From the NCBI GenBank assembly GCA_008632985.1, contig QPGO01000011.1, forward strand, positions 62,001-126,000: a stretch of DNA of 64,000 nt, given 5' to 3'. A program made the translations under genes and the position numbers. This document shows, one piece after another, positions 2,931 through 50,288 of the stretch. The notes below the pieces were generated by a model. That model was not told the origin of the DNA. It made no database searches and saw nothing but the letters and a program-made list of their open reading frames with translations. This DNA is from Psammoneis japonica (Eukaryota). Position 1 is the stretch's first letter. Each line of letters begins with the position of its first letter.

Positions 2931-3006
2931 GCCTCATGCGATGCTTTCGAGGTCATTGATCGCAACAGGATTGCTTTCTACATAACATGACTTTGCATGC
3001 TGCCAC
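2931..3006 (+). repeat. Left copy of a ~70 bp direct repeat bracketing the 12.7 kb TpA-depleted block
   Basis: gcctcatg...ctttcgaggtcattgatcgcaacaggattgctttcta...acatgactttgcatg matches 15693-15763. Confidence 0.9.
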
Positions 3007-3480
3007 TGGTTGGGTTGTTGTGCAGGTGTGCTGTGGAGGCAGAACAGCTCCCACCAATTCTTCTTGTTTCATCCCTTGAATGCACAAACAATGTGTTTTC
3101 TGGCAGGACGTTCAAGGAGGGGCACCCACCAGCGCTCCTGCTGGTGACTTCATCAGGCCATCATTGCAGGGGTGGTCATCAGTGCTTCCAAGCCCAGTTG
3201 TTTCAGTGTCTTCTTGAGCAGCAGTCCTTTGTTTGGCTTCAACCCAATGAGAGTGGACACCACCCACATTGGTGGCACCTGCCTTGTGGCTGCTGTGCAA
3301 AGAAAAAGACAAAGAGACAAGGCGGCCGCTCTCTCTCTCTCTTGGGAGCAGCAGCGACAGCATCACCCAGCTGAAAAAGCAAAAGCTCCATTTTGTGGCT
3401 TTTTTGTGTTGATGTGGCACAAAGGTGCTTGACTCTTGTGTGTCAGCATGGCACAAGAGTGCTCAAAGGACTGGGGACAG
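3007..3480. other. Left part of TpA/CpG-depleted island 1
   Basis: No TA dinucleotide seen in ~470 bp, few CG, TG/CA-rich. Confidence 0.8.
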
Positions 3481-3714
3481 AGTCGAGATGCAGTCCTGCA
3501 GCTGAGTGGGATGGATGAGACCTCGGAGGTTGGCGGCAATGTGAACAGCGACAGAGGCAAACAGACGCTTGTTGAAAGTCATTGTCTAGAAATTGTGACG
3601 AATGTCGTTGCTTCTGTTTGAATCGATTTTGTGATGAGCCAATTATTTCGAAGAGAAAATCTGAGTCTGGGTTGCAGTCGTGAGATGCGACCAGAATGAC
3701 GTTGAGTCGTGACT
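3481..3714 (-). repeat. 3' LTR of copia element 1
   Basis: Ungapped match to 10472-10705 with 12 substitutions; termini AGT...ACT. Confidence 0.95.
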
Positions 3715-3735
3715 CTCCCTCTCAACCGAGAGAGC

Positions 3736-6700
3736 TCACCAGCCCATGAGAGCCTTTCTGGCCACACGGAACGCATCGGTCCGTAGTCCCTTCGTGAGCT
3801 GATCGGCTGGTTGCTCTAGAGTGCTGATGGGTTGGATGTCGATCTCCAATTGTTCGACTTTAGTCCCAAACCAGTGGCACGGGATGCCGATGTGTTTGGT
3901 TCGCGGAGACAACTTGGGCATGCGTGCGAACTTGAGGCACGCGGAGTTATCTTCGTACACAATGGACGCAGGTGGGACATTCTGCTCTACAGGCGAGTCA
4001 TCGGTGCCTTGGGTTGCGAGCTCAAAAGCCTTGGAGTGAGTCGTGATGGGGTTTTGGCAGTCAGACTTTCCGAACACGTGGTGGTTGAGCTCCTTGAGAA
4101 CTTCACGAATGGGGATGAGATCGCGCATGGCTTGAGAAAGTGCGACATGTTCCGCTTCCACAGTCGACAATGCCACAAGAGTCTGCAGCTTGGACACCCA
4201 GACAAGCGGGCAGCCGGCGCAGCAGACAAGGTGTCCAGTCCTGGACTTGACAGAAACTGGGTCTTGACCATCTTCCACACCAAACAACCCCGCGAAGTCA
4301 GAATCGACGTAACAATCAACTCGATGATCTTGCGCAGGCTTGAGAATGAGACCTTCAGTGGCAGTTGCTTTGAGGTGTCGGAGCATCCGCTTCACTGCAG
4401 CAGCATGGGACGCTCGGGGCGCAAACGAGAATCGAGCTGCTTGATGTGTGGCACATGCAATGTCTGGCCGGCTGTTCGCTGCCAAGTGCATCAACATTCC
4501 AACAACTGAGCGACAATCGCAGGGTTCATCAAAAGGCAGGCCGTCCGTGTCGGCACCAATGGCCGCAGGCAGAGCTGGAGTAGATGCTCCATTGCAATCC
4601 TGCATCTGTGCGGCACGCAGGACCTTGTCAATTAGACTGGGTTGAGTGAGTGGAAATCGACCCTCGGAGAGCTTTTCGATCTTGACACCGAGAAAGTTGC
4701 CGACTTCTCCTTCGTCTCTAAGTTCAAACACGTGGCGATGTTCATCGTCGGAGACTCCTAACTTGCGAATTTCGGCTTCTAGAGCTTCAGCTGAAGCTCC
4801 AGCAAAAACGGTGTCGTCGACGTGCACCACACACATCATGCCCTCTTTGAAATGCAAACAGGGATCTATGGCTGAAGGTGCCCATCCGTGCTCGGTTAAA
4901 CCAGCTCGCAACTTCTCGCAGAAGCCCTTGGGAGACTGTTTTAGGCCGCACAGTCCTTTCAAAAGTTTGAGAACCATGTTGAGTCCCGACCTTGGCGCAA
5001 ATCCCTTCGGCGGTGTTACACAAACTTCCTCGGCGACATCAGCTTGGCAAAAGGCTGTGGCACAGCCCACCTGTCGTGCAGTCCATCCCTCCTTTAATGC
5101 CGCAGTGAGCATGAGTCGGACACTGGACCATTGCACAACCGGCGCGCAGGTTTCGAAGCAGTCGACTCCTTCTTTCTGCAAGTCACCGCGGACGCAGTGT
5201 CGGGCCTTGTACTTGAGAGGGGTTCCATCTGGGAGTCTCTTGAGCTTTGGTGCCCATGTGCCTGGAAGTGCATTCACACGCGGCTGACGCTCGACTGCTT
5301 TCCAGGCTCGACGATGTGTGAGTGCGTTGACTTCAATTTTCATCGCCTTGATCCATTCGTCGGCATCCGGACCTTTCAGAGCATTGTGTGACAAAGGCAT
5401 GTCAGGGTCCTTGGTTTTCTTGCTAGCTGCGCAGGCTCGTGGATTGCCGACATTGATGGTGCCACTGTCCAAATCCGTCTCGAGAGTCGCCAGATACACT
5501 GGTTGAGCCTCGTGTCCGATCGGCAGTGGCATTTCCTCGACGGAGCTGAAGCAGACCTCATCTACAAACTTGGCAGAGTTGAACTGTCCCTTGGTTGACC
5601 GTGAAGACCGTCGCAGCCCTGGTGCTCCCTCTGGATTCGTCATGGGAGGTGTCTCGACTGGGGGAGGAGCTGTTGGTTCCGTCGGCGCTTCGGGTGGCGG
5701 AAGTCCATTGCTGTCTTGAGGTTCAGGTGGCTGAATTGGCGCAGAGTCCGCAGAGTCTGCAGGAGTTTGAGTCGCAGGTGGGACTGGTGGCGTTGGCTGC
5801 TGAGTCGCAGGTGCGACTCGATCGGCAACGTCGTCGCGAGAAATGGGTGAATCCGGCACAGTGATCGATGGAGCAGGCTCAAAATGCCCGCAAATGCGTG
5901 TTGCTCTGGCCAGTTCTCGTTCTTTACGTTGACGCTCTGGAGGGGTGAGCCACTCATCGTGCAAATGAACTGCCTGATCCTTCTCCAGAGGGATGCATGT
6001 CGATTGGTTGAGGCACAAGTGTTCCCAGTGATCAGGTGGATCCGTCTCCCTCTCGATTGATGGTGCGGCAGTGAAGAGATCGTCAAAGACCACATGACAC
6101 TGAGGTGCAACACTGCCAGTTTGAAGATTGAGGACCAAAGGAACCTCACTGGAATGGATGGCACTGAGTCCCACGAACAAAGCGCGACGAGTGCGAGGCT
6201 CCCAACGCGGGAGCTTCTTCCCGGAAGCGAGGGTCGGGTCAAGTATGTACGCTGGACATCCCCATGTGTGAATGTCGCGCAACCGATGTCTTGGCACTGT
6301 CGAACCGGTGAAAATGTCCGCTGGGCAATGTCCTTTGGAATTTGGGGTGACATTGTAGACATGCGTGGCATGAGAAACTGCCATGGGCCACAGGGAGCTG
6401 TCAATTCCCCCCTTCCAGTGGATTGATGCATGAAGCAACATCGCTCTCGCCATGTTGGAGATGCTGCGGACACCCCGCTCTGCGACGCCGTTCTGATGAT
6501 GGGCGTTGGTTCCACAAAAACGGAGACGTTGTTCATGTTCTCGCACATGTTGTGCAAAAGCGTTGGCCTTGAAAGCGCCACTGTCGGTAAGAAAATCTTG
6601 GACGATGACCCCGTGGTCCAAAGCATGTTTCTCAAACGCTTGCTTCACGCGCATCGTCTCAACAGTGGAGAAACCCAGTTGGTGCTCGACCTGGACACAG

Positions 6701-7420
6701 CCAGAGGCGTGGTCAACAAAGATGCAACCGCCCTTGAATTGCTTGGACGTGGCTTTGCCATAAGAGTCGAAGGTGCGGCCCAAAAGGCGCGACTCAAAAT
6801 GATCAACACTGACAGCCTGACCCGGTCGAAGATGGTCAGCTCGAAGGGCCCCGTCGCGTTCAGGGACTGTCGACTTGTGAGTGGATCCAAGAGAGCGTCC
6901 ATGACCTTTAGCATGTTCGCACACCTCGCATCTTGGGTGGTCACACTTCGCTGCGGACTTGAAACGGTTCGAAAGGAACGGAACTGCGCAGAGAAGTGCT
7001 TGGATGCGACCAAAGTTCAAATGGCCAAAACGGGCGTGCATTTCAAGAAGAAGCTTTTGGCCTGCCGTGAGGTTTTGATTCTCCTCGTTGAGGATCTGAA
7101 GGTTCACTTGAGGAGCGGCAGATGCGCCCTTGGTCATCGACGCAATGGGCAAGTGGCTTGATGGATGATGTGGCACGACCAACTTGCCCATCCCGTCAGT
7201 GTGTAAACGGAAAGTGGTTTCATCGCCCTCACACTTCCCACGTGCCCCCTTCTCTTCGTTGAAGAGGCGTTGAGGCGACAGCAGGCGCTGACGGGCTCCA
7301 GGGACGCAGCATGCCATGGTGTTCAGTTGGATGGCAGCCCCACTCGGCGTTGTGAACACCCACGCAACCGGACCGGTGCCCTGGATGGTAAGACCATTGG
7401 CAATCCCATTGATCTGCAGT
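3736..7420 (-). pseudogene. Copia pol (end of protease, GAG-pre-integrase, integrase, RT, RNase H) with conserved Tyr replaced by Cys/His
   Basis: HARFGH..CEVC, SVDHFES, TDSG, NGVAER, HVDD (for YVDD), DSDFAG, EAEH, EDNSAC, ADQLTK; frameshift near 7420. Confidence 0.92.
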
Positions 7421-10309
7421 CACAGGCCCCGTAAAATCATCTTTGTCGGGGGTGACAGCCAATGTGGCACCAGTGTCCATGACGACCGTGAGAGCCTCGT
7501 CCGACAGACCGATGAGTGCCTGCGGATCGGATGCAAGGAGGTCGGCTTGTGATTGTCCGGTGAGCAGTTGGATGGTGGAGGTGTCACAGACGACTGGTCT
7601 AACACTTGCTTCCTCCAATGGTTCCACAGGATCTTGAAAATGGGCAGTGTCCACGATGTGATGCGGCAGACAGAGCTCGTCAAACCGGAAGAAATCCGGG
7701 CTGAAGTCCTCAAGAGCGTCAAAGAAATGCTTCTGGTCGTCGAGAGGTTCCAGTTCCTCACAGGTGTCAAAGAAGGCTGATTCGTCCATCGCATCAGACC
7801 GTTCAGCTGCTTCCAGGCTCTCCCAGTGGGCCTTGAGACGAGTGCTCAGTGCGTGTGACGGATGGCGCACGACAAACTCGGTGAGCACTTGCGTGCCTTT
7901 GATCCTGTGATGTTCGAACAGTGACCCCGTGTCTGACACTATCCGGTCATCTAGCTCTTCCACAATGTGGTAGACTTGAGAGCCAGCGGTCGAAAAACGA
8001 CTTGGCACGTTCGAGAATGGATGCTCGGGCTGTTGACCGGCGTAAACTGCTGACCACACCATCACTGCAACGGATGGGACCATCCAGGAGGCTGGAAACC
8101 CGTGCAAAGTTGGGAGTTTGCGCTGGCGGCGTAGAGCTCGAGGGACACATGGGATCGGAGCAAAGCAAAGATGTGGCACCGTTTCCCAAAACATGGCGGC
8201 GAGCCAGAATGTGAACAGCTTGACTCGACCCAAGAGTGAGCGACGCGAAGTGGGCTCGTCTTCGACGTCCTCGTGACAATCATCCGCATCCAGGACCTCT
8301 GGATCGTAGAAATCAAAGCCACGATACGCAACACACGGAGGTGAGTCGTAGCATGCGTCTTCAAAGTGTACGTCGTGTTCAAGGATGAGATCCAACTTGG
8401 TGTCGTCTGACAGCATGTCCGTCAAATGTGCGGGAGCGTCAAAGAACTCATCTGGATGCTTGACAGAGTACAGCTTCGAGGCCGGAAACAACTCAATAGC
8501 CGGTGGTTCGTTTTCAAAGGTAGAGAAAGCGTCGGAGTGTTCGTAGAAGTCATCGGCGTCTTCGGGAGTGACAGTCTCAACCACGATGGGAGACACGACT
8601 GGAGCCACGACTGAGGTGAGTGCAGGTGGGCTCGTTTCGATGCAAACCACCTCAGTGCCAACGACTGCATCGCTCTCCCTCTCGGCCGAAGAAGCCGGAG
8701 TAACAACAATTGCAGCAGTGACAGGGGCGGAACAGAAATCCGGGTCGGCAACGGGATCCGTAGCCGCGCACCACATTCCCGTGAAAACCAACTCGTTGGG
8801 GTCGGATTCGTCTCCCTCTGGTGCCTTGGCAGTCTGAGCGGGCGGACCCATGGGCACGCCACTGTCCGGATCAGCAACGGAAGACAAATTCCCGACTGGG
8901 GTCTCCTTGGGAGGTTGCCTGCGGTCGTCGGCATGTTCCGCGGTAGAGTGCTTCTGGCAGATTCCAGGTTTGTCGGCACCCTTCGCCGTGCACGTGGCAC
9001 ACCACTTCCATTCCTTGCCATTCTTATCCTTCTTCGTTTCGCCGTCAAATTTAGTACGCCAGGCAGCGATGGGTCGCCTCTTCTTCTTGGAAGGGTCGTC
9101 TGCAGGCGGCGGTTTGGGAGGAGGATCGTCGCGCGGCGGTTTGGCGTTGCACTTCGGACACGTCTTCTTGGTGCACCCCTTGAGACCGCAACCACAACAG
9201 TGCTTCATCTTCCCAGGGCCATCCGTAGTCGAAAGATTACTCTCGGGTAGCTTGGCAACTAATGCAGGCCATTCCCCGTCCTTCACGAGTTCGTTGTGTT
9301 GCTCTTGAATCCACGCAATGACACCGGCCGGTCCGAGCGTTTTGCAATCGCCATCGGACACGATGTCAGCAGGATTCTTGAGGCGGCACTTGCGTTCCAC
9401 AGCCTTGACGTCGTCGAGCTTGTTGTAGACTCGGCGATTGAAGCATTCAGAGGACGCAGAGGAGATCTTGTGGAGCAGCTTGGAGCTTGTGTTCGCCGGA
9501 AGCGCGCAGTCGGTCTGCATGATTTTCATGATGCGAAGAGCTTCGGCAGCAAAGTCCGTGCAATCCTCGCCGGGACAGTTGACCAAACTGAGGTCTTCTG
9601 GCTGCTTCTTAGCCGTCTCAATGTCCGTTAGAGCGCTGGCATTGCAAGTGTCGAGAGCCATCATGAATGGAACAGATCCAGGGTAGTCTTGGCAGTCCGA
9701 AAGATGGTTGAACTTGGTCTCGATTTTCTCGCGAAAGGCATTAGTGGTTCTTGAGTGAACGAGAAGTTGAGAGAGCCCGATGTCGTCGAGCTCGATCTCG
9801 TCGTACTTGGTGTCATCGGCAGCTGCTTTCCCAACCGTGTGCTCGTTCACGAGATCGGTCACAGTGAACTCGTGAAGATGGTCGAAGACATGTTGAACCT
9901 TGTCGTCGCTGTCCTTGACATGGTAGAACGTCTGCTGACCGTGGGCTTCTACTAGATCTCGAATGGTCTTGACGAAATGGTCCTTGTCAAGCTCGTTGAT
10001 GGGACCGTCCGAAATCTCAAGTCGACCGTTGAACTTGGAAGTCATTGCGGAAGCTTGTTGATCACGGAGAGATCATTCTATCGAGTCGAGAGCCTTGGGA
10101 TGACGGCGCTGAGAGGCGAATCGGCAGGTTCTGTCGTTGGATTGTTCGCAGTTGTTGTTGAGTTTGGAACCACCAATGTAAACCCCGTGGGTTGGGTGAA
10201 TTCCACCACGCAACGGCTTGGTTGGAGCCGGAGGAGCAGTCGCCGCGGCGTTGGCGGCCATTGCATCGGCAAACGCCTTCGCCAGAACATCTGGATCGAT
10301 GGCAGCCAT
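7229..10309 (-). pseudogene. Copia gag with Zn knuckle, long acidic/hydrophobic insert and protease (DTGA); in-frame TGA at 10073-10075
   Basis: ORFs 10073-10309 and 7229-10045 are in frame, split by one TGA (probably from CGA); CCGCGLKGCTKKTC, WKWCATC...H, VVMDTGAT. Confidence 0.85.
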
Positions 10310-10471
10310 GATGGAGAGTGCAGTGTGGGAGGTTCTTGTTAGAGTGAAGACGAGAGAAGCGAGAGAGACTCAGCCATTTCCCGGGTTTGCTTCAAAATCA
10401 AAAACCGAAAGCGTCCGTGACGATGACTCGGTCAGGAGCTCTCGTCAACGCGCAAATTGGTCTCTGCAACC

Positions 10472-10705
10472 AGTTGAGATACAGTCCCACAGCTGAGTGG
10501 GATGGACAAGACCTCGGAGGTTGGCAGCAATGTGAACAGCGACAGAGGTAAACAGACGCTTGTTGAAAGTCGTTGTCTGGAAATTATGACGAATGTCGTT
10601 GCTTCTGTTTGAATTGATTTTGTGATGAGCCAATTATTTCGAAGAGAAAATCTGAGTCTGGGTTGCAGTCGTGAGATGCGACCAGAATGACGTTGAGTCG
10701 TGACT
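10472..10705 (-). repeat. 5' LTR of copia element 1
   Basis: Matches 3481-3714; followed on the minus strand by PBS-like (T)GGTTGCAGAG. Confidence 0.95.
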
Positions 10706-13700
10706 GACAGATCGCATCTTTTCCCTCGCAGGCTTCAGCAGTGCATTTGAAGGTGCTTGCATTTGCTTTGTTTTCCTGTTGTGCAACTGGCGCAGCTTAA
10801 GCCACTGCCCCTTCCACCACCTCATTTTGGGTTGATGGCCATCACAAGTTTCAATCTCCAGGCCTTGACACAACTTTCTGGGTGGTTCCCTGGGTTTCTT
10901 CTTCAGTCAGCTGTTTGGGGCCGTTGCTTTCAGCCCTCAGCCCCATCATTCCTGCCTCAAGCAAGACTGGCTGCTGTGCTGCCAAGGTGCACAATGAGCA
11001 CCTGGACACCAAGTCTGGATGTCATGTTGCCAAAGTTGGAGCTCTTCTCTCTTCTCTTTCACTCAACACCAAGAAAGATGCCATCTGTTGTCATCAGGGA
11101 GCTTTTTCAATGCTGTCAGAATCTTTCAATCAACGAGCATGGTTGAGCCCTTGCAATGACAGCCTGGCTTGTGCTTGGACACACCAGCCTTTTTCTTTGA
11201 TGAGCTGTGTTGGTGCCACTGGCCAGCACTTCATGAGTGACTGCGTGCGCAGCTGGCCCCAATTGGCGGGGAGAGCAGCAGCCTTCTTTGCCAAAGCAGC
11301 CGAAACAAATGCACACACAACTTTCTGATGGCAGCTCTAGATTGCATTGCCAAGGCCTCACATCATCTTAAAATCCACCCAGTGGGTGGTGTGCACCTCC
11401 TTCTCAATCTGATGCTTGGCTCTTTGAGCTGCAGCCAGCAGCTGTGCTCCTCAACTGCTCTCCTTGCAAGGAGGAAGGCATTTGAAATGCACGGGCCACC
11501 ACTGTCCCAAAGGTTGGTGCTGACAGATCTTGGATCTTGAGTTGTTTTGCTGGCATGCATGTGCTTTCCTCATTCTTGAGTTGCGTGCCTGAGTGCAGGA
11601 AAGTGGGCTCATTGTCAATGGTGGTGTTTGTGGCTCGTGGCTCTGGAGACATTTCAGATTGTGTCTCTGTTGGCTGCACAATGTGCAGAGACACTTTCTT
11701 TGCAGATTTTGTTTGTGCATTACCCCAGTTGCTTGTTGCCAGTCATGTCAGGAGCTGCAGTGTAGTTGCCAAACCAGACCCCCCCCCACATGGTGCCTTT
11801 CCAAGGAGAGGTCTTGAAACTTGCAGCCAGCATGTTCAATCCAGAAGAAGAGTCTGCGAAAAAGTGCACGCCAAGACCACACTTTTTTGTGGCAATTTCC
11901 AGTTTTTCCACCCATCCAGGTTAGAGAAAGCATTTCTTTTCCATGCCAATGGCTTTGAAGAGAAGTTGGACACTGCATTGATGTCATCCCAATGTGGCAG
12001 ATTTTGTCCATGCTGTGTGCAGCACATCCAAAGGCTTGCAAAGGGTGCAAAGTGCAGCGATGAAAATGACTGCTTTGTTGCGCCGTTTTGTGCATCCAAT
12101 GATGTGCATTCTTGCAAACACTTGTTTTTGTTCTTCTGTGTTCAGCAGCTCTGCCATTTTGGGTCATGCATCCAAAAGATTCGTCACTGCTCACAACTGT
12201 CATTTCAGTGTGAGCAGCGGCCACATTGCAGTGGGTTGGGCATCAAAGATGCCGTGCTGTTTTGAGCTCCAGCTCACACCCAAATGTTGTTCCATGTTTC
12301 ACAATTTTTGCTGTGATAGCCCTTTGTGTGTCATGTGTGCATCTTAAGCTCTTGGGCCCAAATGAGTTGTTCATTGCCAAAGCTCACTTGATCAAATCAA
12401 AGGGGGCAGAGATGTGACATTTTGCCTGCCACACAAACACAGGTGCTTGGAGCAATGGTTTTTGCATGTGACGAAGGAGGTGCACTGCAGCTTGCTTGGG
12501 TTTTTGCTTTCTTTTTGCTGCTGGCATCTTGGTCATTTTTGTGAGTGTCAAATTTCTTCTGGCATTTCTCCTGAGAGCATCAAGTTGCATCTTGAATGCC
12601 TTGGACACTTGGGAAATGCATGTGGATTGTCTCCCAGAAGACACCAAGCATTTGCACTTTCTCTTTCTCCCTTTTGTCAGTGACTTGGAAGTGCTGCATG
12701 GTCTGCTTCTTGTTTTTGTGAGACATCTGAACAAATTCCAAGCAGAGCTTGGAAAGATGGTTGTGCTTTCACACTTGGCTTCATCCTCCTTTGCATGTCA
12801 ACAAATCCCCCGCCACAAGCCTTGTCTGGCAAGACAGGCAATCTGGTTTGGCAGTGTCTTTTCTTCAGATGCATTTGAAAGATTGTTTTTCTTTTCATTG
12901 CACTGCTTTTTTTTTCAACACCTCTTGTGTTCTTGCTTGACAGGGCATGGTCTGGGTGTCATTGCAGGCTTCAGAAGACAGGCTTCCAAACACAGCATTG
13001 TGCGGGGGGGGCACTCTCAGCATCTGGCAAAGCCATGCTTGGTTCATTGCCGTCAGCTTGAGAGGTGGGCACCATCACAGGGAATGTTGATGAGGCAGCG
13101 TCAGTTGCTTTTTTTGCAGTCAAAGCCAGGACATTTGAAGAAGCTGCAACTTCTGATGGAAAGGTGCTGGGTTCATTGCCTGCTTTTTGAGTGGTGTGGC
13201 CTCATGTCTCATCTGTCAAGAAAAAAAGTGTTGGTGGGACAGCGTCAAAAAATGTTTTCTTGTGAGAAGCTGTGCCAGGAGCATCTGATGGCTGGACAAA
13301 GAAGGCAGTGCCATGTGGCCAACATTTTTCATTGCAGCCACAGCAGGTGCACCCAAAGAGGACATGGTTTCTGATGGCAGCAACCAAGAGAGAGCAAAGC
13401 TTGGAGTTGTTTTCAAACAAGATGTTTTCTTTTTGACACACTGCTGTGTTTCATGAAAAGGCTTTTTGGTGTGCTGGCAGCAGATGATGGAGCCATTGAC
13501 AACTGGGAGCAACCCAGTCAGTGCACAGCTTGTGGTGCTGGTGACAATGGCGTTGTCAACATGTGCTCCTAACTTGACAAACTTCTTGAGTGAGTGTGGC
13601 TTCTTGCTCATGCAAGCTTTGGAACAAGCTTGGCAAAATGTGCTCTTTGAAGACAGATCATCATCACCAGACCTGCTCAGCTTGCTTGGTGAGATTGTGC

Positions 13701-15692
13701 CATTGATGCAAACAAGAGCATTGTCAATGCTGCGCTCTTTTTCAATGGCACATGTCTCCAGCAAGGTTGTCCCCTTGCCCCCAAGGCAGCATGATTTTTC
13801 TTGAATGGATCATGACAGGGACAAACTCTCACCCAGCTTCTTGTTGAACAGCCCACTGTGCCTTTGTGTGCACCATGTTCAGCAAGAAAAGCATTGCCTT
13901 TGGGGCCACATTGTGGCAATGCACAGCTTTTGACCTGCAAATGGCAACAAAGTGCAGCCAGGCTTGGCAGCATTGTTGCGCTTCTTTGCAACCTTGTCAC
14001 CTGCTCCATTGTTGTTTTGCACAGTCAAAGACAACAATGTCATTTTGCTTGTTTGGTGTTTTGCCTGCCTCTTTGAGCAGCTGCAGTCTGTGGCATGCAT
14101 GCTGACCTTAGCTTGGTGCTTTGACAGCTGCTTTGTTGTCTTTTTGTGTGGGGCACAATGCAAAAAAGACAGAAGCTGCTGCAGGAAAGAAGCCGCCAAA
14201 CAAAATGTTTTTGATGCAGCCTTTCCACAGCCTGCAACAAAGGATTTTTTCTTTGCAGTTGCCAAGGGTGCAGGAGGTGCTGCTTGAGCTGTGGCCACTG
14301 CCAAAGCTTTCACACGCAGCTTGCACCTGATGTGTTGAGTGCAGGGTGGTTGGCCACTTGGGTTGTCCAATGATGGCAAAATCAGTTTCCACATGGATGT
14401 CTTGCAGACTCAAAGAAGGACAGCTGCTCCAATCCATTTGAGCATGGATTTCAAATGAGTGTGATGACATGATTCCAGATTTGATCGTCGATGGTTGGGA
14501 GCTCCCGTCCATTGCACTGTTGGGTTTCATGCATTGTCCGGTGACAAAGCACAGCATGTGCCACATCTTGAAGCCAAGCTGCATTGACGCCATGGGGGAA
14601 AAAGAGCAAAGTGTCATGAAACAAACCCAGCGATTGCAGGCTCATTTGTGCAGCGATCATGAGAGATCTGCAAAAGAAGTCAGCAAACACCCTGCTTGTT
14701 GCATGCCCAAATGCATCATGACAGTCAATGGCACTGAGAAATCCAGCACAACAATTGAAGCGAGCACTGTTTCACAGTGGTGCAACTGTGCTCTCATCTT
14801 GGTCAATGTCGTGGCCATTGATCTGCAAACAAGCAAGTGTCATGGCAGAAGATGTGGTGCTTTTTGTTGTTCTCTCAGCGGTGCATGCACAGGGCACAGC
14901 AGCTTCAAAATGCCATGTTGTGCACCGCAACAACACACGACATGAAACACAAAGTGACAATGTGTGAACCTCAAGCATCCAGGAGGTGGCAGCCATTTAA
15001 CTCGCCCAAAGCAGCCCAGAGATGGGGTTTCTCAACTTGCCAAAATCAGGCGATTGCACCAAATCTGAGCAGCCACCATCATCCACCCCACAGCTTGCGC
15101 ATGGCAAACTTTTTCAAAAGCTCATCATCAGAGAGATTGTGTGGGAACATGCAGAATGTGGCACAAACAGGTCATGCAAGCAGGTGAGCAACATGCACGC
15201 TGCCACACCTTGGAAGAAAGCAGCAGTGCCCGCTCTTGCAATTTGCAACACCGCCGTGTGCCCCAAGCTGTGCAAACAAACCCAGCAGGCCTGTTCCAGC
15301 TCCAGGTGCTCTGCTTTTCATCACGCGATTTGCCGATTTTCTGCACAGTTCAGTGCAGTTAACTCCTTCAATTTTGATCGTTTCGAAAATCGAAAGGTGA
15401 GTGTGCAGCACACCCGAAAACACATGCAAAGTGCACACTCACCCCCTTCGATTTGGCAAAAAACGGGTTTGGAAAAAGTTGATTGCGCTGAATGCACAAA
15501 TTTCCAAATGATGGGAATCGAACCCGCGCTGAGCACCTGGAGCTGGAACAGGCCAGCAGGCAGCAGGCCTTCTTCTTGCAACAGCCCCCAATGCCCAACA
15601 ATGGGCCCTGCAACAGAGGAGAAGGTGAAAACTCAATGTTGTGCACAATGGAGGTCATCTGGCGTCGACTTCGAGCGAACCTTTGGTCAGTC
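10706..15692. other. TpA/CpG-depleted island 1 (right part); degraded sequence with gene-like relics
   Basis: About 12 TA in ~5 kb versus ~4 per 100 bp in neighbouring genes; many overlapping Cys/His/Gln-rich ORFs. Confidence 0.9.
15288..15554. mobile_element. 267 bp MITE-like element with 24 bp perfect TIRs and 4 bp TSD
   Basis: ggcctgttccagctccaggtgctc (15288-15311) is the reverse complement of 15531-15554; AGCA on both flanks. Confidence 0.8.
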
Positions 15693-21306: not shown

Positions 21307-21643
21307 TGTCGCGGAACATGACTCAAGCGGGACTCAAGTGATTGGGTCCCGGTCACGAGTGAAGGGTCGTGCCACCGATGACCACAGAAATCGGAGCCGA
21401 CCACGAATGCCGCAATCGATCTTGAGGAACAAGATCGATGAATCGAATGGCCGAGGAGCGGCGATTTGACAAGATCGATTTGGTAAGATTGATTTGGTAA
21501 GATTGGTTTGACAAGATTGAAGTCCAGAAGAAGTAGAAAAGCAGATCATAATTTAGCGAGAGTGAGAAATGTGAAGACTATTAATTTTAGTTTTGTGTGC
21601 TACTGACAAGGTGTTAGTAGTATCGGCATCTGGTTGTCCAACA
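21307..21643 (+). repeat. 5' LTR of copia element 2
   Basis: Identical to 26811-27147; contains ~4 copies of a 14 bp unit (gatttggtaagatt-like). Confidence 0.97.
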
Positions 21644-21702
21644 CGATATATATCGACAGTTTGTGGCAACACTACATTCGAGAGTAGTAAGTGAGAGAAG
21701 CG

Positions 21703-24700
21703 ATGAGCAAGGAAGAACAGACCTACGAGACTTCTTTGTCGTGGAGCGGCAAGAGAGAAGACTTCGAGAATTTTTTGGTGAAATTCGAGGCATTCGAGAG
21801 CGACCACGGTTGTGACGAAGCAACCGATGTGGATCTAGGAGATAAGCTTCTCACCAAGGCGGAATACGTGAATGGAAGAAGAAAGTAACGCAAGCTAATG
21901 GTACAGAGACCGAAGAAGACCTCACAAAGGAGGATAAGAGGTTGTACAAGCTGAACGCGAAATCATTTTCGAAGATCATCCGTGCGTTGCCTGAAAACTT
22001 GATCAAGGCCTGCAAGAACCAAGGTGGACCCAAGAAGTCCGTTTATTTGATCAAGGAGTACCTCAAGAAACACTACTCGGAGCAGAATGTGGTAGATGAT
22101 TACCAAAACCTCTACAAGAAGAGGTTGGAGCTAGAACCTGGAGAGTTCGAGATAGCGCTGTTCTATTTCAACGAGTTGGAGGATATTACTCCAAGTTGGG
22201 AAAGATTGATGAAAAGTATCGCTTAGATGAGCTTCAGTTGAAGACTGATATCTATTCAAAAGTCCCGGATCAAGGTAACTGGTCCTCTTTCAAGTCCGAG
22301 TATCGCAAGGACGGCGCGATGGAGAACATTGCCTACAGTGCGTTCAAGCAGCACTATGAACGGGAGTGGAAAGCTCATGGTCCACCAGGAGGATCTACTA
22401 CATCTATAGATCGATCTTCTGGAGAGGATAAGACCCTAACTATGAAGGTACAGGGTAGCAAGTTTTTCCCGGGTAATTGTGGGAAGTGTGGCAAGAAAGG
22501 TCACAAGTCAAAATTTTGTCCTGACAAGAAGAACGCCAAGACGAAGAAATTCGATGGCGATTGCTTTTATTGCGGCAAGCATGGACATAGAGCGAGCGAC
22601 TGCTTCAAGAAGAAGAAGGATGAAAAGGAGAAAGACGAAGAAACGAACGAGGTTACACTCGGAGTGTTCGATTCCGTCGACTTGGTTGAGGAGGGTAAGG
22701 ACCCTATTCCAGACTCCTTCTTCGATACCTTCGATACTAAGCCTGCAGTTCGAGACGATGAGTTCGAGAGAGAGCTTAAGAGGTGGGATACTCGGTCTGG
22801 ACTGGGTTACGGCTACGATAGTAGCGGCGAACGCGCGCTGTCATGGTACGAATGGAGCGAGATGGCGGACGATGAGGACGAAGAAGACGATGACGGCATG
22901 AGTATGCCGGAGCTAGAAGGTCCTTTTGTTTCTGATAAGGTCGAGGATGAAAGTATCCCGCCCTTGGAACCGCGGTATGATTCCGACAGCGATTCGGATG
23001 ATGACGAGTCATTAGAGCTGATCGGCACTCAACGCAAGTGCACCAACTGTGACGGGCCTGGACATGTCTATCGAGGCTATCGCACAACGAAGAAAGTTCA
23101 AGACGAGGACAAGGGAGACGAGGAAGACAGTATCCCGCCCTTAGTATCTCGTGGCGGTTATGATAGCGACTCGAGCGACGACGAGTCGGTTGAATTCGAG
23201 GTTGTTTGCTCGTATTGCGGACAGCCTGGACACGAATTCTGCACTCCTTTCCAAGAGTTTTGGAATAACCCGGATGAAGAGAGCGATGATGACAGTATTC
23301 CGACTCTAGAGAGTGGTATGGACTCGGATAGTGATTCAGAGTCTGAGTTTGATTACGATTCGGACGACGACTATGACGAAATACTGATGTCCGGTGCGCA
23401 GTATGAACCAGAACGTGGCGGTGTAAGGCTACTATTGGACTCTGGCTCGACAGCACATACAAAGAGGTCTGCTGAAGGGATGCGGAACCTCAGGGAAGTG
23501 AACAAAGTCATGAAGGACGCACACGACGGGAGTTCGGTAGCGAAGCTCCAAGGAGATTTTCCATTTACGCGTCAGAATGGGGACGGTACAGTAGTTATTA
23601 CTGAGATGTACGTCCAGCCAAAATTTTCACATAACATTGTGAGTCTGACGAAGCTATTTGAGAAAAATTGCAAGCTGAGTCCGACGACTGATCCCAAACG
23701 AGCCATTGTTCTCGAGTGCCCTGATGGCACGGAATTAATTTTCGAAAAATCAGCGAAAGATGGGCTGTTTTATATGGAAGTTGACTCGCTGACGGATGTG
23801 TCCGAAATGACCGCAGACGTTTCCGATGGACAGAAATCTGGACAAAAAGAGTCGGACAAGAAAGTCCATGTTAACCGCGCACACATTTTGCTGAACCACA
23901 TGGGAGAAAGCGCGATGAAAATGGCGGCAGCAGATCTCGGTTGGAAATTGACCGGTATACCCAAGACCTGCGAGTTCTGTGTCAAGGCAAAGGCTACAGC
24001 AAAGCCAACCGTGAAGGCTAGCGATAAGAAAGCGACCAAGCCTGGTCAGCGGCTCTACCTAGACACGTCAGGACCATACAAAGCGACGCGCGGCAAGAAT
24101 CGATATCATGTGATGATAGTCGATCAACTTACAGATCGACTTTGGTCGATGTTCCAAGCAAAGAAAAATGGTTTTACGGACGATATCAAAGCTTTATTGA
24201 CTAAGCTGAAGGGTCAGGGGTACCCAGTCGAGTTCTTACGGATCGACAACGCTCCGGAATGGGGTGCACTCAAGCCAATTTGTGATGAGCATGGGATCAC
24301 GATCGAGTATACCTCCCCTAATACTCCGCAGTTCAACGCGGCAGTCGAGAGAGCGTTCCCAACAGTGCGTAATATGGCATACGCGGTACTGAAAGCATCC
24401 GATTTCGACGACGCAGAGCAAAGTCGGCAATGGGCGAATGCGCTGCAGGACTGCACTATCGTTCGTAACTTGGTCCCACGTGGGGACTGGAGCAATGCTT
24501 ATGAACCATTTGGAGAAAAGCCACCCGTAAAAGCCGAAGACCTGGTAGAGTTTGGCGCAAAGGGGTGGATGGCCAAGAGAAACAAGATCAAGGCCAAGTT
24601 TCAAGATCGTGCCGAGGAGGTTCGTCGCGTAGGATACGCTGAGAATCACTCGAGCGATACGTATATTGTTCAAAAGTTATCAAATCGTCGTTGTGTGTTG

Positions 24701-26973
24701 ACACGCGACGTGGTATGGGAGTCTAAAAGACGATATGATCACCTAGACCCCGAGACAGTGGTCGAAAAGCAAACTCCGCGAGTAACTTGGGCGGACGACG
24801 CAAGACCGTCAACAGTGGTTGAAGAGATATCACGCCCCTCTCAGTCATCCGCAGACGACCCCGACTTTCATGATTCTCATTCACAAATTGAGGAGGGAGA
24901 AGAGAGTGCAACAGACGGCGAGGAATCAACGGATAGCGAAGAAAGTGACTCCGAGATGGGTGCGCCACCTGACGGACCAGGACAGACGGATAAAGAATCA
25001 GCTGTGAATAGTCGATTGGAACGCGAGTTGAGCAAGCTGAGGACTTCTTATAACCCAGCTGGTCTCCCAAGCGACGACGAGGACGAGGTAGAAGCGGTGA
25101 ATATGGTCGCAGGATATGTTGATCCGAAGAATGATCGCGAAGCGATGACAGGCGACGAAGCTGACGAGTGGTGGAAGGGTCTAGTCACAGAATACGATGG
25201 ATTTTTCGACTTGAGAACTTGGATACTGGTCAAGGAAGCCGAATTGAAAGGTAAAAAGATATCCAAGCCGCTATCAACGAAGAACGTCTACAAAAAGAAA
25301 TTACACGCGATAACAAAAGAGGTGCGGTATCGCGTGCGCAACTGCATTCGGGGGTTCGATATGATACCCGGAGTTCATTTCGATGAATCTTTTGCACCTA
25401 CTCCGACGGATCATACTGTGAGACTCATATTGGCGATATCATTATGGATGCTGGAACAGTTGGAAGTCGATGATATCGACGAAGCCGAGAAGGAGTGGAT
25501 TGTCGGGCATTTGTTCGATGTTGTGCAGGCATTTCTGAACTCAGAGATGACTGGACCACCTGTACATGTGCATCTTCCCCCTATGTGGAAGGAGTATTGC
25601 GAATATAAAGGTTGGGAATACAACGAGAACGATCTTATTTTGCTCGGAAAGGCGCAATATGGGCAAGTCGATGCCGCGAAGCGCTGGATTGATATGTTTG
25701 TCGGAATCATGACTGAAAAGGGTGGCGTCGAGCTTAAACGAAGCAAGACTGACCCTTGTGTGTTGTACCGTCATGATGACAAGGGGCAATTGGAGATTAT
25801 CATTTTGATTTATGTGGACGATGGTTTCATATGTGGGAGGCCGGAAGTCGTTAAGGAAGCCAAGGACTATTTGGCGAAGAGAGTTAAGATACTGGACATT
25901 GGACGAATCGACACTCATTTAGGAATTGATTATGAGTTGAAGAAAGACGAACACGGTTGGTACTTCGAGTGCAGCATGCGCAAGTACGTGGAGAAGATGG
26001 TTGCGGAGTACGAACAACGCTTCAAGAAGACACTTAAGGACTACGAGACACCTGGGGAGCCAGGAAGATATTGATGAAGGCGGACGAAGACCATGAGCCA
26101 GTCGAGCAAAACGGATATCGAGCCTTCGTCGGAAAGATCCTATATGCGATGTTGAAGGTCTTACCTGATTGCGCGAATGCGATTAGAGCGCTGACAATGC
26201 ATTTGACGAATCCAACTAAGGATCACTGGCACGCGCTGGACAGACTTATGGGACATCTGAAATTTCACTATCAGCCATTGAAGTTGAGGTCACCTTTGGA
26301 ATTAAGGAGCATAGGGATATTCGACGCTGAGTGGGGAACGGACAAGAATGACAGAAAGAGCATTTCGAGTGACATTTCCACACTGGGCGGTACGTCGTTA
26401 ACTAATTGGCAATCGAAGAAGCAGACCTCTGTGGCGCTGAGCAGTTGTGAAAGTGAGACCATAGCGGGCACGGCGTGCGCGCAGAGCATACAATTCCAGA
26501 ATCATTTATTGGAAGAGCTGGTAGGTACGGACATGTTGAAGATGCCGAGTTATGCGTACGGAGACAACGCCGCATCACTGTTTCTGGCTGTTAACAACCA
26601 AGTGGGACAGCGGACGAAACACATTCACATTCGTGATAGATATTTGGGCGAGTTGGTTCAACGTGGAGAGATTGAACCACGTCATGTCAGTACGGAGAAG
26701 AACCCGGCAGATGTCAACACCAAGAACGCGAAGATCGAAACGCACAAGAGACTAGCTCAGAACCTGTATGACGGATTCGTGATGGTTGAACCGGAACCAA
26801 TCAAGGAGGGTGTCGCGGAACATGACTCAAGCGGGACTCAAGTGATTGGGTCCCGGTCACGAGTGAAGGGTCGTGCCACCGATGACCACAGAAATCGGAG
26901 CCGACCACGAATGCCGCAATCGATCTTGAGGAACAAGATCGATGAATCGAATGGCCGAGGAGCGGCGATTTGA
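21703..26973 (+). CDS. Copia gag-pol polyprotein with three -1 frame breaks (probably sequencing errors); ends inside the 3' LTR
   Basis: CX2CX4HX4C knuckles, LLDSGST, H..LNH..CEFC, LDTSGP, RIDNAPE, AVER, YVDD, DAEW, ESE, GDN, NPAD. Confidence 0.93.
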
Positions 26974-27147
26974 CAAGATCGATTTGGTAAGATTGATTTG
27001 GTAAGATTGGTTTGACAAGATTGAAGTCCAGAAGAAGTAGAAAAGCAGATCATAATTTAGCGAGAGTGAGAAATGTGAAGACTATTAATTTTAGTTTTGT
27101 GTGCTACTGACAAGGTGTTAGTAGTATCGGCATCTGGTTGTCCAACA
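26811..27147 (+). repeat. 3' LTR of copia element 2
   Basis: Identical to the 5' LTR. Confidence 0.97.
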
Positions 27148-31669: not shown

Positions 31670-33049
31670 GGTCAACCTCTTATAATACCGGCACCGGTAA
31701 AAAGTTTGGCAGCAACAGAAAAAATGAGACGGTGATTTGCGCCGTTATTATTTTCGATTGGAAAAGGGCATTTTAATATTGTAACTACGTTGACGCATTT
31801 CTCAAATAAGCAATAAATGTTTCTTCATTTATTGTAGCACAAATGGTTTTATTCACATTCGTGCTTGCATGTGGATTTATTCATTTCAGTTGCCTCCTGC
31901 CGATTTTGAATTTCAAATTTCTCGAAGGCAGGACCATGGTTCAGGGGCTTGTGAACCACGACGAAAAAGCACCACGGATCCATCCTTTCAGTGGAATAAT
32001 GGAGGGAAGGAACTTCAAAGCATGAAGATTCAAGGTGCAGCGGGAAATGTTTCTGAAACAAGGGAGCACCAGCAAAAGAAGGGTGCCACCACACTGCGGG
32101 GCTTCAGCCCTGTCTCAGCAGAAGAACCAACACGAGCTGTGATGTGTGTCCATTTTTTTCTCCCTTTGTTTGATCCCATGGCACAGTTGGCAACTCCTTC
32201 AAAAATCAAACCTCAACAAGATTTTGTGCAGAGTGTGCTGTGTGCTTGTGTGTCTTTCTTGCACTGGTGCCAACACAAAAAACAACTCGGTGTGGAGGAA
32301 TTTTGCAGCTGATGCTGACTTCTCAATGATCACAAGCAAGAAAGGCCTTTTTGCAACTTTCTCAGGACAACAGGTCACTGTGCTTTCAGACATGGCATGC
32401 GCAGCTGAGAAGGAGTGTGCAGACAGTCTCTTGTTGTGTGCACAAACACCAGCAAAGGCATTTCTTCTTTTGCCTCCTGTGGTGGTTTGGCTCTCTTGTC
32501 ACGACAGTCACACACAACCCCAAAGAAGAGAGAGACAAGTTGACTCAACAGCTTGCACCAAGGATTTTGGTCTTGAGCCCTGTTCTTGGTGTTCTTTGCA
32601 GTGCTTGACCTTTGACTTTGGACACACAAGAGCTCTTGTTCTTTCAAAGCTGTGAGCGACCACCAAGGAGCAAGGCCCAGGAGAAGGATGGGGTTGTTGC
32701 TGACACCACTCCAGGCTGTGTTCATCTTGGGACAAGAAGGTGAGAGGCTGGTGCAATGGAGTTTGCTCAGCAGGGCTGCACTGCTGGCTCCTCCTTTTGC
32801 AAAAACTCTTGACATGAAGTGAGGAGGGAGGTGTGGAACCTGGGTTGGATTGTGCTGACACATGCGAGAGTGTCGAGTTTTGGAGCTTGCCCTTTTTATG
32901 TGCCACCCTCACAAATGAAAATGTTGCACACATTTGTGAGATGCCAGTGCAAGACACACGTGCAGATTTGCCCACTGCACACATTGTCACATCACTGACC
33001 TCATTGCGCCACTTCCCATGTGGCCCCCATGATCGTCACACGACAATGC

Positions 33050-33305
33050 TGCTGAGCTGCAAATGTGCACAAGCATCTGGTGCATTGACTCACAATGCAT
33101 TTGTTTTGTGTTGCCTGGTGGGGGTCAAGCCACAATCTGGTGTGTGCAAAGTGCAAAAAAGTTGGCAAGTGTGGAGCTGAAATGGGCAGTCAGCTTCAGA
33201 GAACAGTTTGTTCTCATGAGCACAGAGCCACCAAGTGTTGTTGGGACCAAGTTGGTGTCTCTTCTCACACATGGTCAAGCAATTGGCAATTGCCAAGGAC
33301 TGCAA
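33050..33305 (+). repeat. Dispersed ~240 bp repeat, copy A
   Basis: gctgagctgc..aaatgtgca..gcattgac..ttgttttgtgttgcctgg..tctcttctcaca..aattgccaaggactg shared with 34948-35185. Confidence 0.8.

Positions 33306-36984: not shown

Positions 36985-50288
<13,304 letters not shown>

Follow-up and report, generated by a model that had tools for sequence, protein, structure and literature searches.

RIP in ascomycete fungi changes CpA to TpA, by which TA is created and G+C is lowered. It is a regional, transition-only hypermutation which needs duplicated sequence, ruins transposons while sparing the adjoining genes, and leaves old elements unrecognisable to similarity searches. Diatom transposons carry DNMT5-dependent CG methylation (PMC9998398). 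In dinoflagellates, a TET/JBP enzyme makes 5-hydroxymethyluracil (5hmU), which lies mostly on repeats and helps to silence transposons, and older work on Crypthecodinium reported T in TA and TC to be preferentially replaced (PMC11572971). The closest described system is the TpA hypermutation of integrated viral DNA seen in mutation-accumulation lines of the rhizarian alga Bigelowiella natans (Mettrop et al., 2026 preprint, bioRxiv 10.64898/2026.01.13.699255). According to the preprint, two viral regions gained 231 single-nucleotide mutations, of which 230 were A>G or T>C, each of these at a TpA, with a rate of about 6e-7 per site per generation; the process was active in 11 of the 15 lines and inactive in the others. 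It also reports 124 TpA-poor, CpA+TpG-rich clusters, with reverse-transcriptase and DDE domains enriched in TpA-poor CDS. Our literature search found no report of TpA hypermutation for diatoms.

We analysed a single window of 64 kb, the whole stretch of DNA under study, from the diatom Psammoneis japonica (Table 1). The background for comparison was the 41.7 kb of genes and spacers within it, where observed/expected (o/e) ratios were 0.53-0.61 for TA (0.0385 per bp, 38 per kb) and 1.01-1.05 for CG. The initial annotation had described three islands nearly stripped of TA, and this was borne out. The right part of the host element of island A had 11 TA in 4.6 kb, against 176 predicted from the background rate (Poisson P 3e-60), island B had 7 in 5.1 kb (195 expected, P 4e-73) and island C had none in 760 bp (29 expected, P 2e-13), which is 0-3% of the expectation for TA, with CG at about 20%. 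The annotation had treated 3007-15692 as one nearly TA-free, CG-poor block. This holds for 3008-3480 and 10706-15290 but not for the Ty1/copia element nested between them, which accounts for over half of island A and is not CG-poor.

Table 1. Features of the 64-kb window (positions within the window; o/e, observed/expected)
Feature	Position	Strand	Remarks
Island A, old host element, left part	3008..3480	.	split by copia insertion; 0 TA, 5 CG, 104 TG+CA in 473 bp
Target-site duplication of nested copia	3476..3480 (left), 10706-10710 (right)	.	GACAG, same 5 bases directly outside both LTRs
Nested Ty1/copia element in island A	3481-10705		TA o/e 0.18 (73 TA), CG o/e 0.87
Nested copia, LTR, window-left	3481..3714	-	94.9% identical to 10472-10705
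Nested copia, pol-side open frame	3736..7419	-	1227 aa; integrase and RVT_2 (Pfam RVT_2 7.5e-33); mutationally damaged
Nested copia, gag-side open frame	7229..10072	-	947 aa
Nested copia, LTR, window-right	10472..10705	-	pair of 3481..3714
Island A, old host element, right part	10706..15281	.	TA-stripped, CG-poor, origin unrecognisable; composition for 10706-15290: 50 CG in 4585 bp, TA o/e 0.03, CG o/e 0.23
Small inverted-repeat element	15282..15560	.	279 bp; TA-poor, CG-normal; 33-nt terminal inverted repeats (15282-15314 and 15528-15560, 91% complementary)
Young copia element, internal control	21307..27147	+	unaffected; 337-bp LTRs 100% identical
Island B	31880..36950	.	TA-stripped, CG-poor, origin unrecognisable; 57 CG, 1180 TG+CA in 5071 bp; TA o/e 0.02, CG o/e 0.19; fills gap between two divergent ORFs
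Island C	53990..54749	.	no TA; 12 CG, 167 TG+CA in 760 bp; TA o/e 0.00, CG o/e 0.26

The shortfall in TA and CG was matched by an equal gain in TG and CA, for which o/e in the islands was 1.7-2.0. The sum of TA, CG, TG and CA (YpR) was 0.230-0.245 per bp in the islands versus 0.237 in the background, unchanged as conversion of TA and CG to TG/CA would give. TG and CA were about equally frequent (543/513 and 615/565), and no same-strand tracts were found in the islands (runs-test z 0.9, -1.4, 1.2). Island edges were abrupt, within about 30-150 bp, and the adjoining genes were of normal composition.

Open frames of at least 100 aa (stop to stop) in the right part of the host element and in island B gave no Pfam match at E<0.01, and tblastn recovered no copia remnant from the former. 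As the right part of the host element, island B and island C hold no recognisable genes, we infer rather than observe that they are mobile or foreign DNA. An old internal repeat of island B (33048-33225 / 34945-35131) carried six TG-versus-CA double differences. In Logan contigs of sequencing run X1, which reach a word depth of about 60 on the unique flanks, depth over the right part of the host element was 61-70 in most bins, with one bin up to 124. The small inverted-repeat element had 1 TA and 13 CG in 272 bp (15285-15556), and summed contig depth reached 11504 in the bin that lies over it (15025-15525).

The nested copia element provides an internal clock. The two LTRs of one element are identical at insertion. 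Here they differed at 12 of 234 positions, all of them transitions and all at TA or CG sites, and in a purine/pyrimidine alphabet they were identical at 234 of 234. Four sites were CG in one copy and TG/CA in the other, four were TA against TG/CA (the direction being taken from the overall depletion and not from an outgroup), and two were TG against CA, for which the ancestor could be CG as well as TA. None of the 192 positions outside TA and CG differed (0/384 counted over both copies), whereas 40-57% of TA-site copies had changed (Fisher P 2e-7). Since the LTRs started out identical and now differ at TA sites, the TpA process acted after insertion and at the DNA level. The LTRs also imply 5-7 TA per 234 bp at insertion versus 16.7 expected from base composition, so that the element was probably already moderately TA-poor when it inserted.

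The proteins of the nested element were damaged in the corresponding way. Tyr made up 0.57% of the pol-side frame, with 4.48% His and 3.18% Cys, and 1.27% of the gag-side frame, which gave no Pfam match. HVDD stands in place of the catalytic YVDD, and LCGLKQ in place of LYGLKQ. Tyr is present in 60% or more of the 61 homologues at 30 columns; in these the element has Tyr 5 times, Cys 11, His 8, Phe 4, Trp 1 and Ile 1. Tyr was thus lost from 25 of 30, in 19 cases to His or Cys (TAY>CAY/TGY), while other conserved residues were kept in 558 of 671 columns (P 2e-14). The TAs that survive fell in all three codon phases (7/14/9, and 12/9/14 in the gag-side frame). A process of this kind removes TAA and TAG, replaces Tyr codons by those for His or Cys and never makes stops, and elements hit by it therefore retain open frames that are long but dead.

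Summed contig depth over the interior of the nested element was 3000-6000 versus about 60 on the flanks, which suggests that the family has many related copies, though the RT motif of the copy in the window is dead. Codon 1181, at which 98% of homologues have Tyr, is TGC in the window copy and CAC in 85% of the depth of other copies; codon 38 is TGC in the window copy versus TAC in others. Judging from these two codons, sister copies appear to have been hit independently. Among the 34 variant sites listed between the window copy and the further copies present in run X1, TA/CG/TG/CA interconversions numbered 28 and one was A>G outside TpA/CpA; the tally of change types for the run had 103 transitions among 125 places. 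The young copia element in the same window had TA o/e of 0.50-0.74 and CG o/e of 1.05-1.29 in 1-kb windows, 3.70% Tyr and an intact YVDD.

The likeness to RIP lies in the regional, transition-only damage to transposons beside spared genes. The direction differs, as TA is destroyed here and TG/CA gained, and so does the need for duplication, as the right part of the host element was at single-copy depth in most bins. The CG>TG/CA half of what the islands show is explained by decay of CpG in methylated transposons, which cannot, however, remove TA. Four other copia loci had lost CG (o/e 0.18-0.25) with TA o/e of 0.46-0.74. As this is CG loss without TA loss, and the nested element has lost TA with almost normal CG, the two processes are separable. 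The initial annotation had proposed a second regional process, apart from CpG decay, that changes TpA to TpG or CpA on either strand. A DNA-level, post-insertion, strand-symmetric process of this kind, acting here on mobile DNA in addition to ordinary CpG decay, is supported. The three points on which the annotation could have failed (changes spread beyond TpA, a base-calling artefact and a naturally TA-free donor) all came out in its favour: changes in the LTR pair and among the listed copy variants were concentrated as described above, and the other two points are taken up below.

That modified bases in silenced DNA were miscalled, so that TA and CG were read as TG/CA, is hardly credible, even though both affected steps are palindromic, as symmetric DNA-modification sites would be. 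Where the assembly lacks TA, contigs built only from X1 reads lack it too; they span 10678-15292 in three pieces with three other letters and a one-base insertion in total, and one of them bridges the left junction (2951-3509) with no other letters. The run and the assembly may share one sample, and no library type is recorded for the run; long-read base-calling error is excluded here by the argument that noisy reads would not yield contigs of up to 315 kb at a word depth of 60. If the miscall depended on the strand, CG should also have been created, yet CG is depleted, and the replacement of Tyr by His and Cys together with transition-only LTR differences makes coherent biology. It is improbable, though less so, that the islands were TA-poor by nature, through a foreign donor or selection against UpA in transcripts, and were not mutated in place. 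No naturally TA-free donor was found, and 77 of 80 related copia loci had TA o/e of 0.43-0.80. The remaining three, a clade from public metagenome contigs (L041, L009 and L068), do lend this explanation something, with TA o/e of 0.14-0.21 yet YVDD kept and surviving TAs mainly in Tyr codons (12/21, 12/15 and 9/12), as in purging under selection; the partial TA poverty of the nested element at insertion points the same way. Against it, the loss in the nested element destroyed conserved tyrosines and left TAs in all codon phases, LTRs and sister copies differ among themselves at TA sites (e.g. codons 38 and 1181), the YpR sum is the same as in the background, which is what conversion predicts, and TG and CA are balanced between the strands, unlike the outcome of selection on one transcript. 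ADARs are a metazoan family, which counts against A-to-I hyper-editing of retrotransposon transcripts at the RNA level, fixed by reverse transcription. One affected element is a retrotransposon, and ADAR enzymes favour U 5′ of the edited A according to the B. natans preprint (bioRxiv 10.64898/2026.01.13.699255). However, editing before integration would leave the LTRs identical, neither strand bias nor same-strand clustering was seen, and the flanking host element and the small inverted-repeat element are also affected, which makes this explanation very improbable.

A further alternative accepts the signature and disputes only its function. The TpA changes may arise passively from a base modification or a bias of repair that is confined to heterochromatin, without a selected role in disabling invaders, for example through TET/JBP-made 5hmU at TpA that then mispairs or undergoes error-prone repair. 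As TpA is its own complement, A>G on one strand is indistinguishable from T>C on the other. A mark on T in the repeat DNA of another SAR-group alga, with an older report of a TA/TC preference, is a conceivable route to T>C at TpA (PMC11572971). TA loss coincides here with regions bearing a CG-methylation footprint, and the lack of same-strand tracts fits a chemical process acting site by site. In the available text of the dinoflagellate study, however, 5hmU serves to silence and no hypermutation is described (PMC11572971), and the genome-wide map of Breviolum, as far as its available text goes, gave no TA preference for 5hmU (PMC11071213). Our literature search found no 5hmU or TET/JBP data for this organism, nor anything of the kind for diatoms. 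The process was also fast, to judge from the share of LTR TA-site copies that changed while other positions stayed the same, and in B. natans its being on in some lines and off in others looks regulated rather than passive. We therefore regard a passive origin as possible but rather doubtful.

The best explanation as a whole, to which we give a probability of roughly 0.8, is that old mobile DNA was hit after integration by CpG decay and by a faster TpA process of the same kind as in B. natans. The initial annotation had stated that no mechanism for such changes was described, which the report of TpA-only A:T>G:C hypermutation in that alga contradicts (bioRxiv 10.64898/2026.01.13.699255). In both, as far as the available text of the preprint goes, A:T>G:C transitions occur at TpA only and give TpG or CpA by strand, discrete blocks of non-host DNA are affected while the rest is ordinary, and the footprint is TpA-poor and CpA+TpG-rich. 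For the enzyme, the preprint proposes an ADAT2-like candidate. The host differs, being a diatom (stramenopile) here and a rhizarian there, and so does the target, a datable LTR retrotransposon with its LTR pair as a clock versus an integrated virus. Depletion here is near-complete (o/e 0.00-0.03) versus a rho of 0.45 for the NCLDV block of B. natans, and it comes with strong CpG loss, while “CpG” does not occur in the main text of the preprint. The rate was measured directly in B. natans, whereas here the signature is read from sequence only.

Under our preferred reading, the islands would be old, presumably silenced mobile DNA, comprising an older element of unrecognisable origin with a datable Ty1/copia element inside it, a small inverted-repeat element and two more blocks of unrecognisable origin. 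Once this DNA was integrated, the two self-complementary pyrimidine-purine steps would have been hit by two transition processes restricted to these regions. One is probably ordinary CpG>TpG/CpA decay, as expected from 5-methylcytosine deamination on methylated diatom transposons; the other, faster one would change TpA to TpG or CpA (A:T>G:C at TpA) on either strand with equal chance. An enzyme may mark or edit TpA in silenced chromatin, by adenine deamination to inosine or by thymine oxidation, which would leave the same trace in the DNA, and the process would serve to disable invaders. Having been reported once before, in an unrelated alga, and now in a diatom, the process may be widespread.

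Composition was assessed by a scan in 1-kb windows and by a full dinucleotide table over the window. The background, 41.7 kb comprising genes and spacers, had a TA observed/expected ratio (o/e) of 0.53-0.61 (38 per kb) and a CG o/e of 1.01-1.05, and genes flanking the islands had normal TA. Against this background, the near absence of TA that the initial annotation described in A2 (the right host part of island A), B and C was real (Table). TG and CA had an o/e of 1.7-2.0 in all three. In the 1-kb windows of 11001-15000, TA o/e was 0.02-0.08 and TG/CA 1.76-1.98, and in those of 32001-36000 the values were 0.00-0.02 and 1.75-2.05. Island edges were sharp, within 30-150 bp. The summed frequency of TA, CG, TG and CA was 0.230-0.245 per bp inside A2, B and C and 0.237 outside, a balance expected from conversion of TA and CG to TG and CA. 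The process is strand-symmetric, as TG and CA were about equally frequent in every island (543/513 in A2, 615/565 in B and 84/83 in C), and a runs test detected no same-strand tracts of TG or CA (z of 0.9, -1.4 and 1.2; background -2.5 to 1.4). The CG deficit that had also been described was recovered in the host element of island A (A2 included) and in B and C, but not in copia#1, a Ty1/copia element nested in island A (CG o/e 0.87). The copia#1 windows passed the TA cut-off, and only one of them passed the TG/CA cut-off (TG/CA 1.13-1.53).

Island A is a composite block. Its older host element was TA-free and CG-poor, and copia#1, inserted in it, had two LTRs of 234 bp each that were 94.9% identical and a 5-bp target-site duplication (GACAG). 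In this coding element 73 TA sites remained (o/e 0.18), with ATA and TAT scarce and GTA and TAG plentiful. Summed contig depth in the copia#1 interior was 3000-6000, a value that is not a copy number, compared with about 60 on the flanks. The family may therefore be abundant, despite the dead reverse transcriptase motif of the window copy. The short inverted-repeat element at the right of the block had one TA and normal CG, and the summed read depth in its bin was very high (11504). A stretch of it resembled a tRNA T-arm by eye; neither ARAGORN nor Rfam found a tRNA or Rfam match in the element. Units of a repeat of about 90 bp flank island A, a single one at its left end and a tandem pair at its right, so the 12.7-kb block may be an insertion into a short tandem array or may have such an array as its borders. 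A further Ty1/copia element in the window, copia#2, inserted very recently and has been left untouched by the TA process. Its TA and CG were normal and it served as an internal control.

Features of the window and TA-poor copia loci from metagenome contigs
Feature	Position	Strand	Length (bp)	TA seen/expected	CG o/e	Poisson P	Description
~90-bp repeat unit, left	2934-3007
Older host element of island A	3008-3480 + 10706-15281						copia#1 nested inside
copia#1	3481-10705	minus					Ty1/copia; Pfam RVT_2 7.5e-33, integrase-side domains, LTRs, target-site duplication
A2	10706-15290		4585	11/176	0.23	3e-60	right host part of island A
Inverted-repeat element	15282-15560		279				33-nt terminal inverted repeats, 91% complementary
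~90-bp repeat units, right	15691-15782; 15813-15900						tandem
Direct repeat pair	17178-17385; 19840-20046						88% identical; near PQ-loop gene, outside islands
copia#2	21307-27147						Ty1/copia; 337-bp LTRs 100% identical; intact 1324-codon frame
Inverted repeat pair	27195-27280; 63092-63001						83% identical; outside islands
B	31880-36950		5071	7/195	0.19	4e-73
Dynein heavy chain gene	37083-50288	plus					DHC_N1, DHC_N2, AAA modules
C	53990-54749		760	0/29	0.26	2e-13
L009	9-1775						TA-poor copia locus, metagenome
L041	383-1879						TA-poor copia locus, metagenome
L068	2-1441						TA-poor copia locus, metagenome

The island sequence was compared with public sequencing data. Run X1 supplied 81% of the sampled words. 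X2 and X3 barely covered the window, and no RNA run was listed among those matching it. Contigs assembled from X1 alone had a word depth of about 60 on unique flanks and reached 315 kb, beyond what noisy long reads would yield. Three pieces covered 10678-15292, differing in total by three letters and one inserted base, and the left junction (2951-3509) was bridged by an X1 contig without difference. The run and the assembly differed at three places in A2: a CpG/TpG difference at 14961 (TG in the window, CG in the run), AAT in the window for AGT in the run at 15241, and an extra T behind 12163. Because contigs built from X1 alone reproduced the island sequence, it is very unlikely to reflect miscalled bases in modified DNA, with the qualification that the library type of X1 is unrecorded and that X1 may be the assembly's own sample.

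The two LTRs of an element are identical at insertion, and the copia#1 pair could thus be read as a mutation clock. Compared in a purine/pyrimidine alphabet, the LTRs were identical at 234/234 positions. In the full alphabet 12 positions differed, and all 12 were transitions at TA or CG sites: four sites were CG versus TG/CA, four sites were TA versus TG/CA, and two sites had TG in one LTR and CA in the other. None of the 192 remaining positions differed. Per LTR site copy, 40-57% of TA sites had changed (4-8 of 10-14), compared with 14-25% of CG sites and 0/384 other positions, so that TA change was about 2-4 times faster per site than CpG decay. The endpoint of TA loss was likewise nearer completion than that of CG loss (o/e 0.02 vs 0.2). 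As LTRs that were the same at insertion now differ, the changes are post-integration and occurred at the DNA level, which excludes editing of RNA or cDNA. The LTRs also suggest that copia#1 was already moderately TA-poor when it inserted.

The direction of change was read from the copia#1 pol-side frame in an alignment to 61 homologues of 45-57% identity, taken from metagenomes and from diatom genomes including that of Fragilaria crotonensis. At the 30 columns in which at least 60% of the homologues had Tyr, copia#1 had Tyr in 5, Cys in 11, His in 8, Phe in 4, and Trp and Ile in one each. Conserved Tyr was thus lost in 25 of 30 columns and replaced by His or Cys in 19, while other conserved residues were retained in 558 of 671 (P = 2e-14). 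The changes TAY to CAY (Tyr to His) and TAY to TGY (Tyr to Cys) match TA>CA/TG exactly, which fixes the direction: TA was lost, not gained. The catalytic YVDD had become HVDD and LYGLKQ had become LCGLKQ. Tyr made up 0.57% of the frame (median in the 120 homologues, 2.97%), and His and Cys were raised. A further line of evidence came from sister copies. Codon 1181, which encodes Tyr in 98% of the homologues, was TGC in the window and CAC in 85% of the depth of the other copies, and codon 38 was TGC in the window copy and TAC in the others, so that copies had taken separate hits at one shared ancestral TA. Among the variant sites between copies (from 40 of 127 rows), 28 of 34 were interconversions of TA, CG, TG and CA. 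Conversion of TA to TG or CA never creates a stop codon, and it removes TAA and TAG. Long frames in the islands, which held many of 100-300 codons, are therefore no evidence of function; the dead copia#1 itself had a frame of 1227 codons.

Taken together, the LTR pair, the Tyr replacements and the sister copies support the proposal of the initial annotation that a second, TpA-directed process is at work, separate from CpG decay. We put the probability that such a transition process has acted in place on the window DNA at about 0.8. The two processes are separable, since copia#1 lost TA without much CG, and several related copia loci showed the converse, with CG o/e of 0.18-0.25 and normal TA.

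Several known processes alter dinucleotide composition, and fungal RIP is one of them. It changes C to T at CpA, so creating TpA and raising the TpA/ApT index; the islands show the wrong direction for it, with TA nearly absent and CA enriched about 2-fold. RIP also acts on duplicated targets. At 90% likeness or more the depth of A2 was close to that of the unique flanks (61-70 in most bins, 124 in one), from which present-day repetition does not seem to be required, although independently mutated sister copies may have drifted to about 90% identity. APOBEC-type editing would yield C to T changes, and those in the window were not of this kind outside CpG. ADAR-type hyper-editing of RNA, fixed by reverse transcription, is opposed by the LTR differences at TA sites and by the lack of same-strand tracts. 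GC-biased gene conversion was set aside by reasoning, as it is not specific to a dinucleotide.

Selection against UpA and CpG would deplete the same dinucleotides at synonymous positions and codon junctions and leave the protein conserved. In copia#1 the surviving TAs fell in all codon phases (7/14/9 and 12/9/14) and conserved Tyr was destroyed, which indicates damage and not adaptive avoidance. The avoidance pattern was found in relatives of copia#1 in public metagenome contigs. Of 80 related loci, 77 had TA o/e of 0.43-0.80, and the other three, L041, L009 and L068, had 0.14-0.21 with TG/CA of 1.47-1.59. Unlike copia#1, these three kept YVDD, and their loss of TA was synonymous or at codon junctions. 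Their surviving TAs lay mainly in Tyr codons (12/21, 12/15 and 9/12), compared with 27/66, 15/62 and 21/111 in normal relatives. The most Tyr-poor homologous proteins (P0240, P0236, P0235, P0221, P0234 and P0213; 0.33-1.55% Tyr) were 66-82% identical to L009 and, where matched, to L041, and the three poorest in Tyr often had Phe at conserved Tyr positions. This TA-poor clade looks like a lineage that has long been under the same pressure with selection acting on it. It is possibly a counter-adaptation, which we regard as an arms-race lead and not as proof.

The initial annotation knew of no described mechanism for such a change, a statement that is now out of date. TpA-only hypermutation has been reported from mutation-accumulation lines of the rhizarian alga Bigelowiella natans (Mettrop et al., bioRxiv 10.64898/2026.01.13.699255). 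According to that preprint, 231 of 302 nuclear single-nucleotide mutations lay in two integrated viral regions, and 230 of the 231 were A>G or T>C, all of these at TpA. They arose in 11 of 15 lines at about 6e-7 per site per generation, a de novo rate about 1000-fold above that of the rest of the genome. The preprint also describes 124 clusters poor in TpA and rich in CpA and TpG, reports TpA-poor coding sequences enriched in reverse-transcriptase and DDE domains, and proposes an ADAT2-like DNA adenine deaminase (HxE-PCxxC). Its main text makes no mention of diatoms, CpG or LTRs, and our literature search found TpA hypermutation in this preprint only and no report from diatoms. The window resembles the B. 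natans case in that its changes, beside those at CG sites, were almost only A>G/T>C transitions at TpA and in that both products, TpG and CpA, occur. The 1-kb windows of A2 and B given above also passed the TA and TG/CA cut-offs for hypermutation of the B. natans type. No deaminase was encoded among the window ORFs scanned.

A mobile or foreign nature was evident for copia#1, from RVT_2, LTRs and target-site duplication, and for the inverted-repeat element, while A2, B and C had no recognisable origin. Pfam searches of 45 island open frames of at least 100 amino acids gave no match at E<0.01 (best 0.014), and a tblastn search of the window with 40 of the 120 copia homologues gave no island match below E 0.1. 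In a self-comparison in the purine/pyrimidine alphabet the reversed-sequence control scored 53, and the only island homology above this value was one internal repeat in B. Island B fills nearly exactly the interval 31744-37083 between divergent sulfotransferase-like and dynein heavy chain frames, and island C likewise fills 53663-54897 between a divergent unnamed ORF and the ORF at 54897-55895. Given these divergent frames, the promoters of both gene pairs would lie at or inside TA-free DNA. The dynein heavy chain gene was read in five long open frames, which implies few introns; if it is of axonemal type, its presence in a diatom would be consistent with a lineage whose gametes carry flagella. 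Two repeat pairs lay outside the islands (Table). The window does not come from B. natans: its MtnB/enolase-phosphatase gene was 55-66% identical to diatom proteins among the matches (Thalassiosira, Discostella, Nitzschia and others).

The loss of CG would be the expected decay of methylated transposons; in Phaeodactylum, DNMT5-dependent CG methylation silences young transposons (PMC9998398). For the loss of TA, the attacked base cannot be read from the sequence, since an A>G change in TpA equals T>C when read from the complementary strand. One route would be deamination of adenine to inosine, as proposed in the B. natans preprint, and another would be modification of thymine. A TET/JBP enzyme of dinoflagellates produces 5-hydroxymethyluracil on repeat DNA and aids in silencing it, and an old report gave this base a TA/TC preference (PMC11572971); the TA preference was not confirmed in Breviolum (PMC11071213). 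Targeting by silencing chromatin is inferred from the sharply defined edges, the overlap with DNA that shows CpG decay and the unaffected state of a just-inserted copia. A defence role and an enzyme behind the TpA process are inferred as well.

A wider reading, tentative and on present evidence rather unlikely, is that a TpA-directed DNA mutator is an old genome defence shared by SAR-group algae, in at least Rhizaria and diatoms, aimed by silencing and answered by transposons that purge TA. Silencing machinery would aim the mutator at newly integrated transposons and viruses, where it would act several-fold faster per site than decay of 5-methylcytosine and would kill coding capacity without any stop codon. 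Transposon lineages would answer by purging every spare TA, an answer that might be visible in L009, L041, L068, P0240 and their relatives, with TA kept almost only for essential Tyr and the others turned to Phe. If so, comparing species that carry the footprint with species that lack it would identify the enzyme, which might be a naturally occurring adenine deaminase of double-strand DNA or one that oxidises thymine.

A process of this kind has already been described, in a preprint, for another lineage. What the window adds is a further eukaryotic lineage, retrotransposons as targets, the clock provided by an LTR pair, a link with CpG decay from which the process can nonetheless be separated, and the Tyr to His/Cys read-out. 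LTR pairs and counts of Tyr to His/Cys would provide a simple internal assay for any assembly. For annotation, affected elements retain long dead open frames, and similarity searches no longer recognise the old ones. A natural enzyme that converts A:T to G:C at a set dinucleotide of double-stranded DNA would be of interest for base editing, and with the diatom a presence/absence search for it would have two genomes to draw on. The process has here run to completion and can also be seen under way on an LTR retrotransposon that can be dated, and a diatom footprint would show that the TpA process is not limited to one species.
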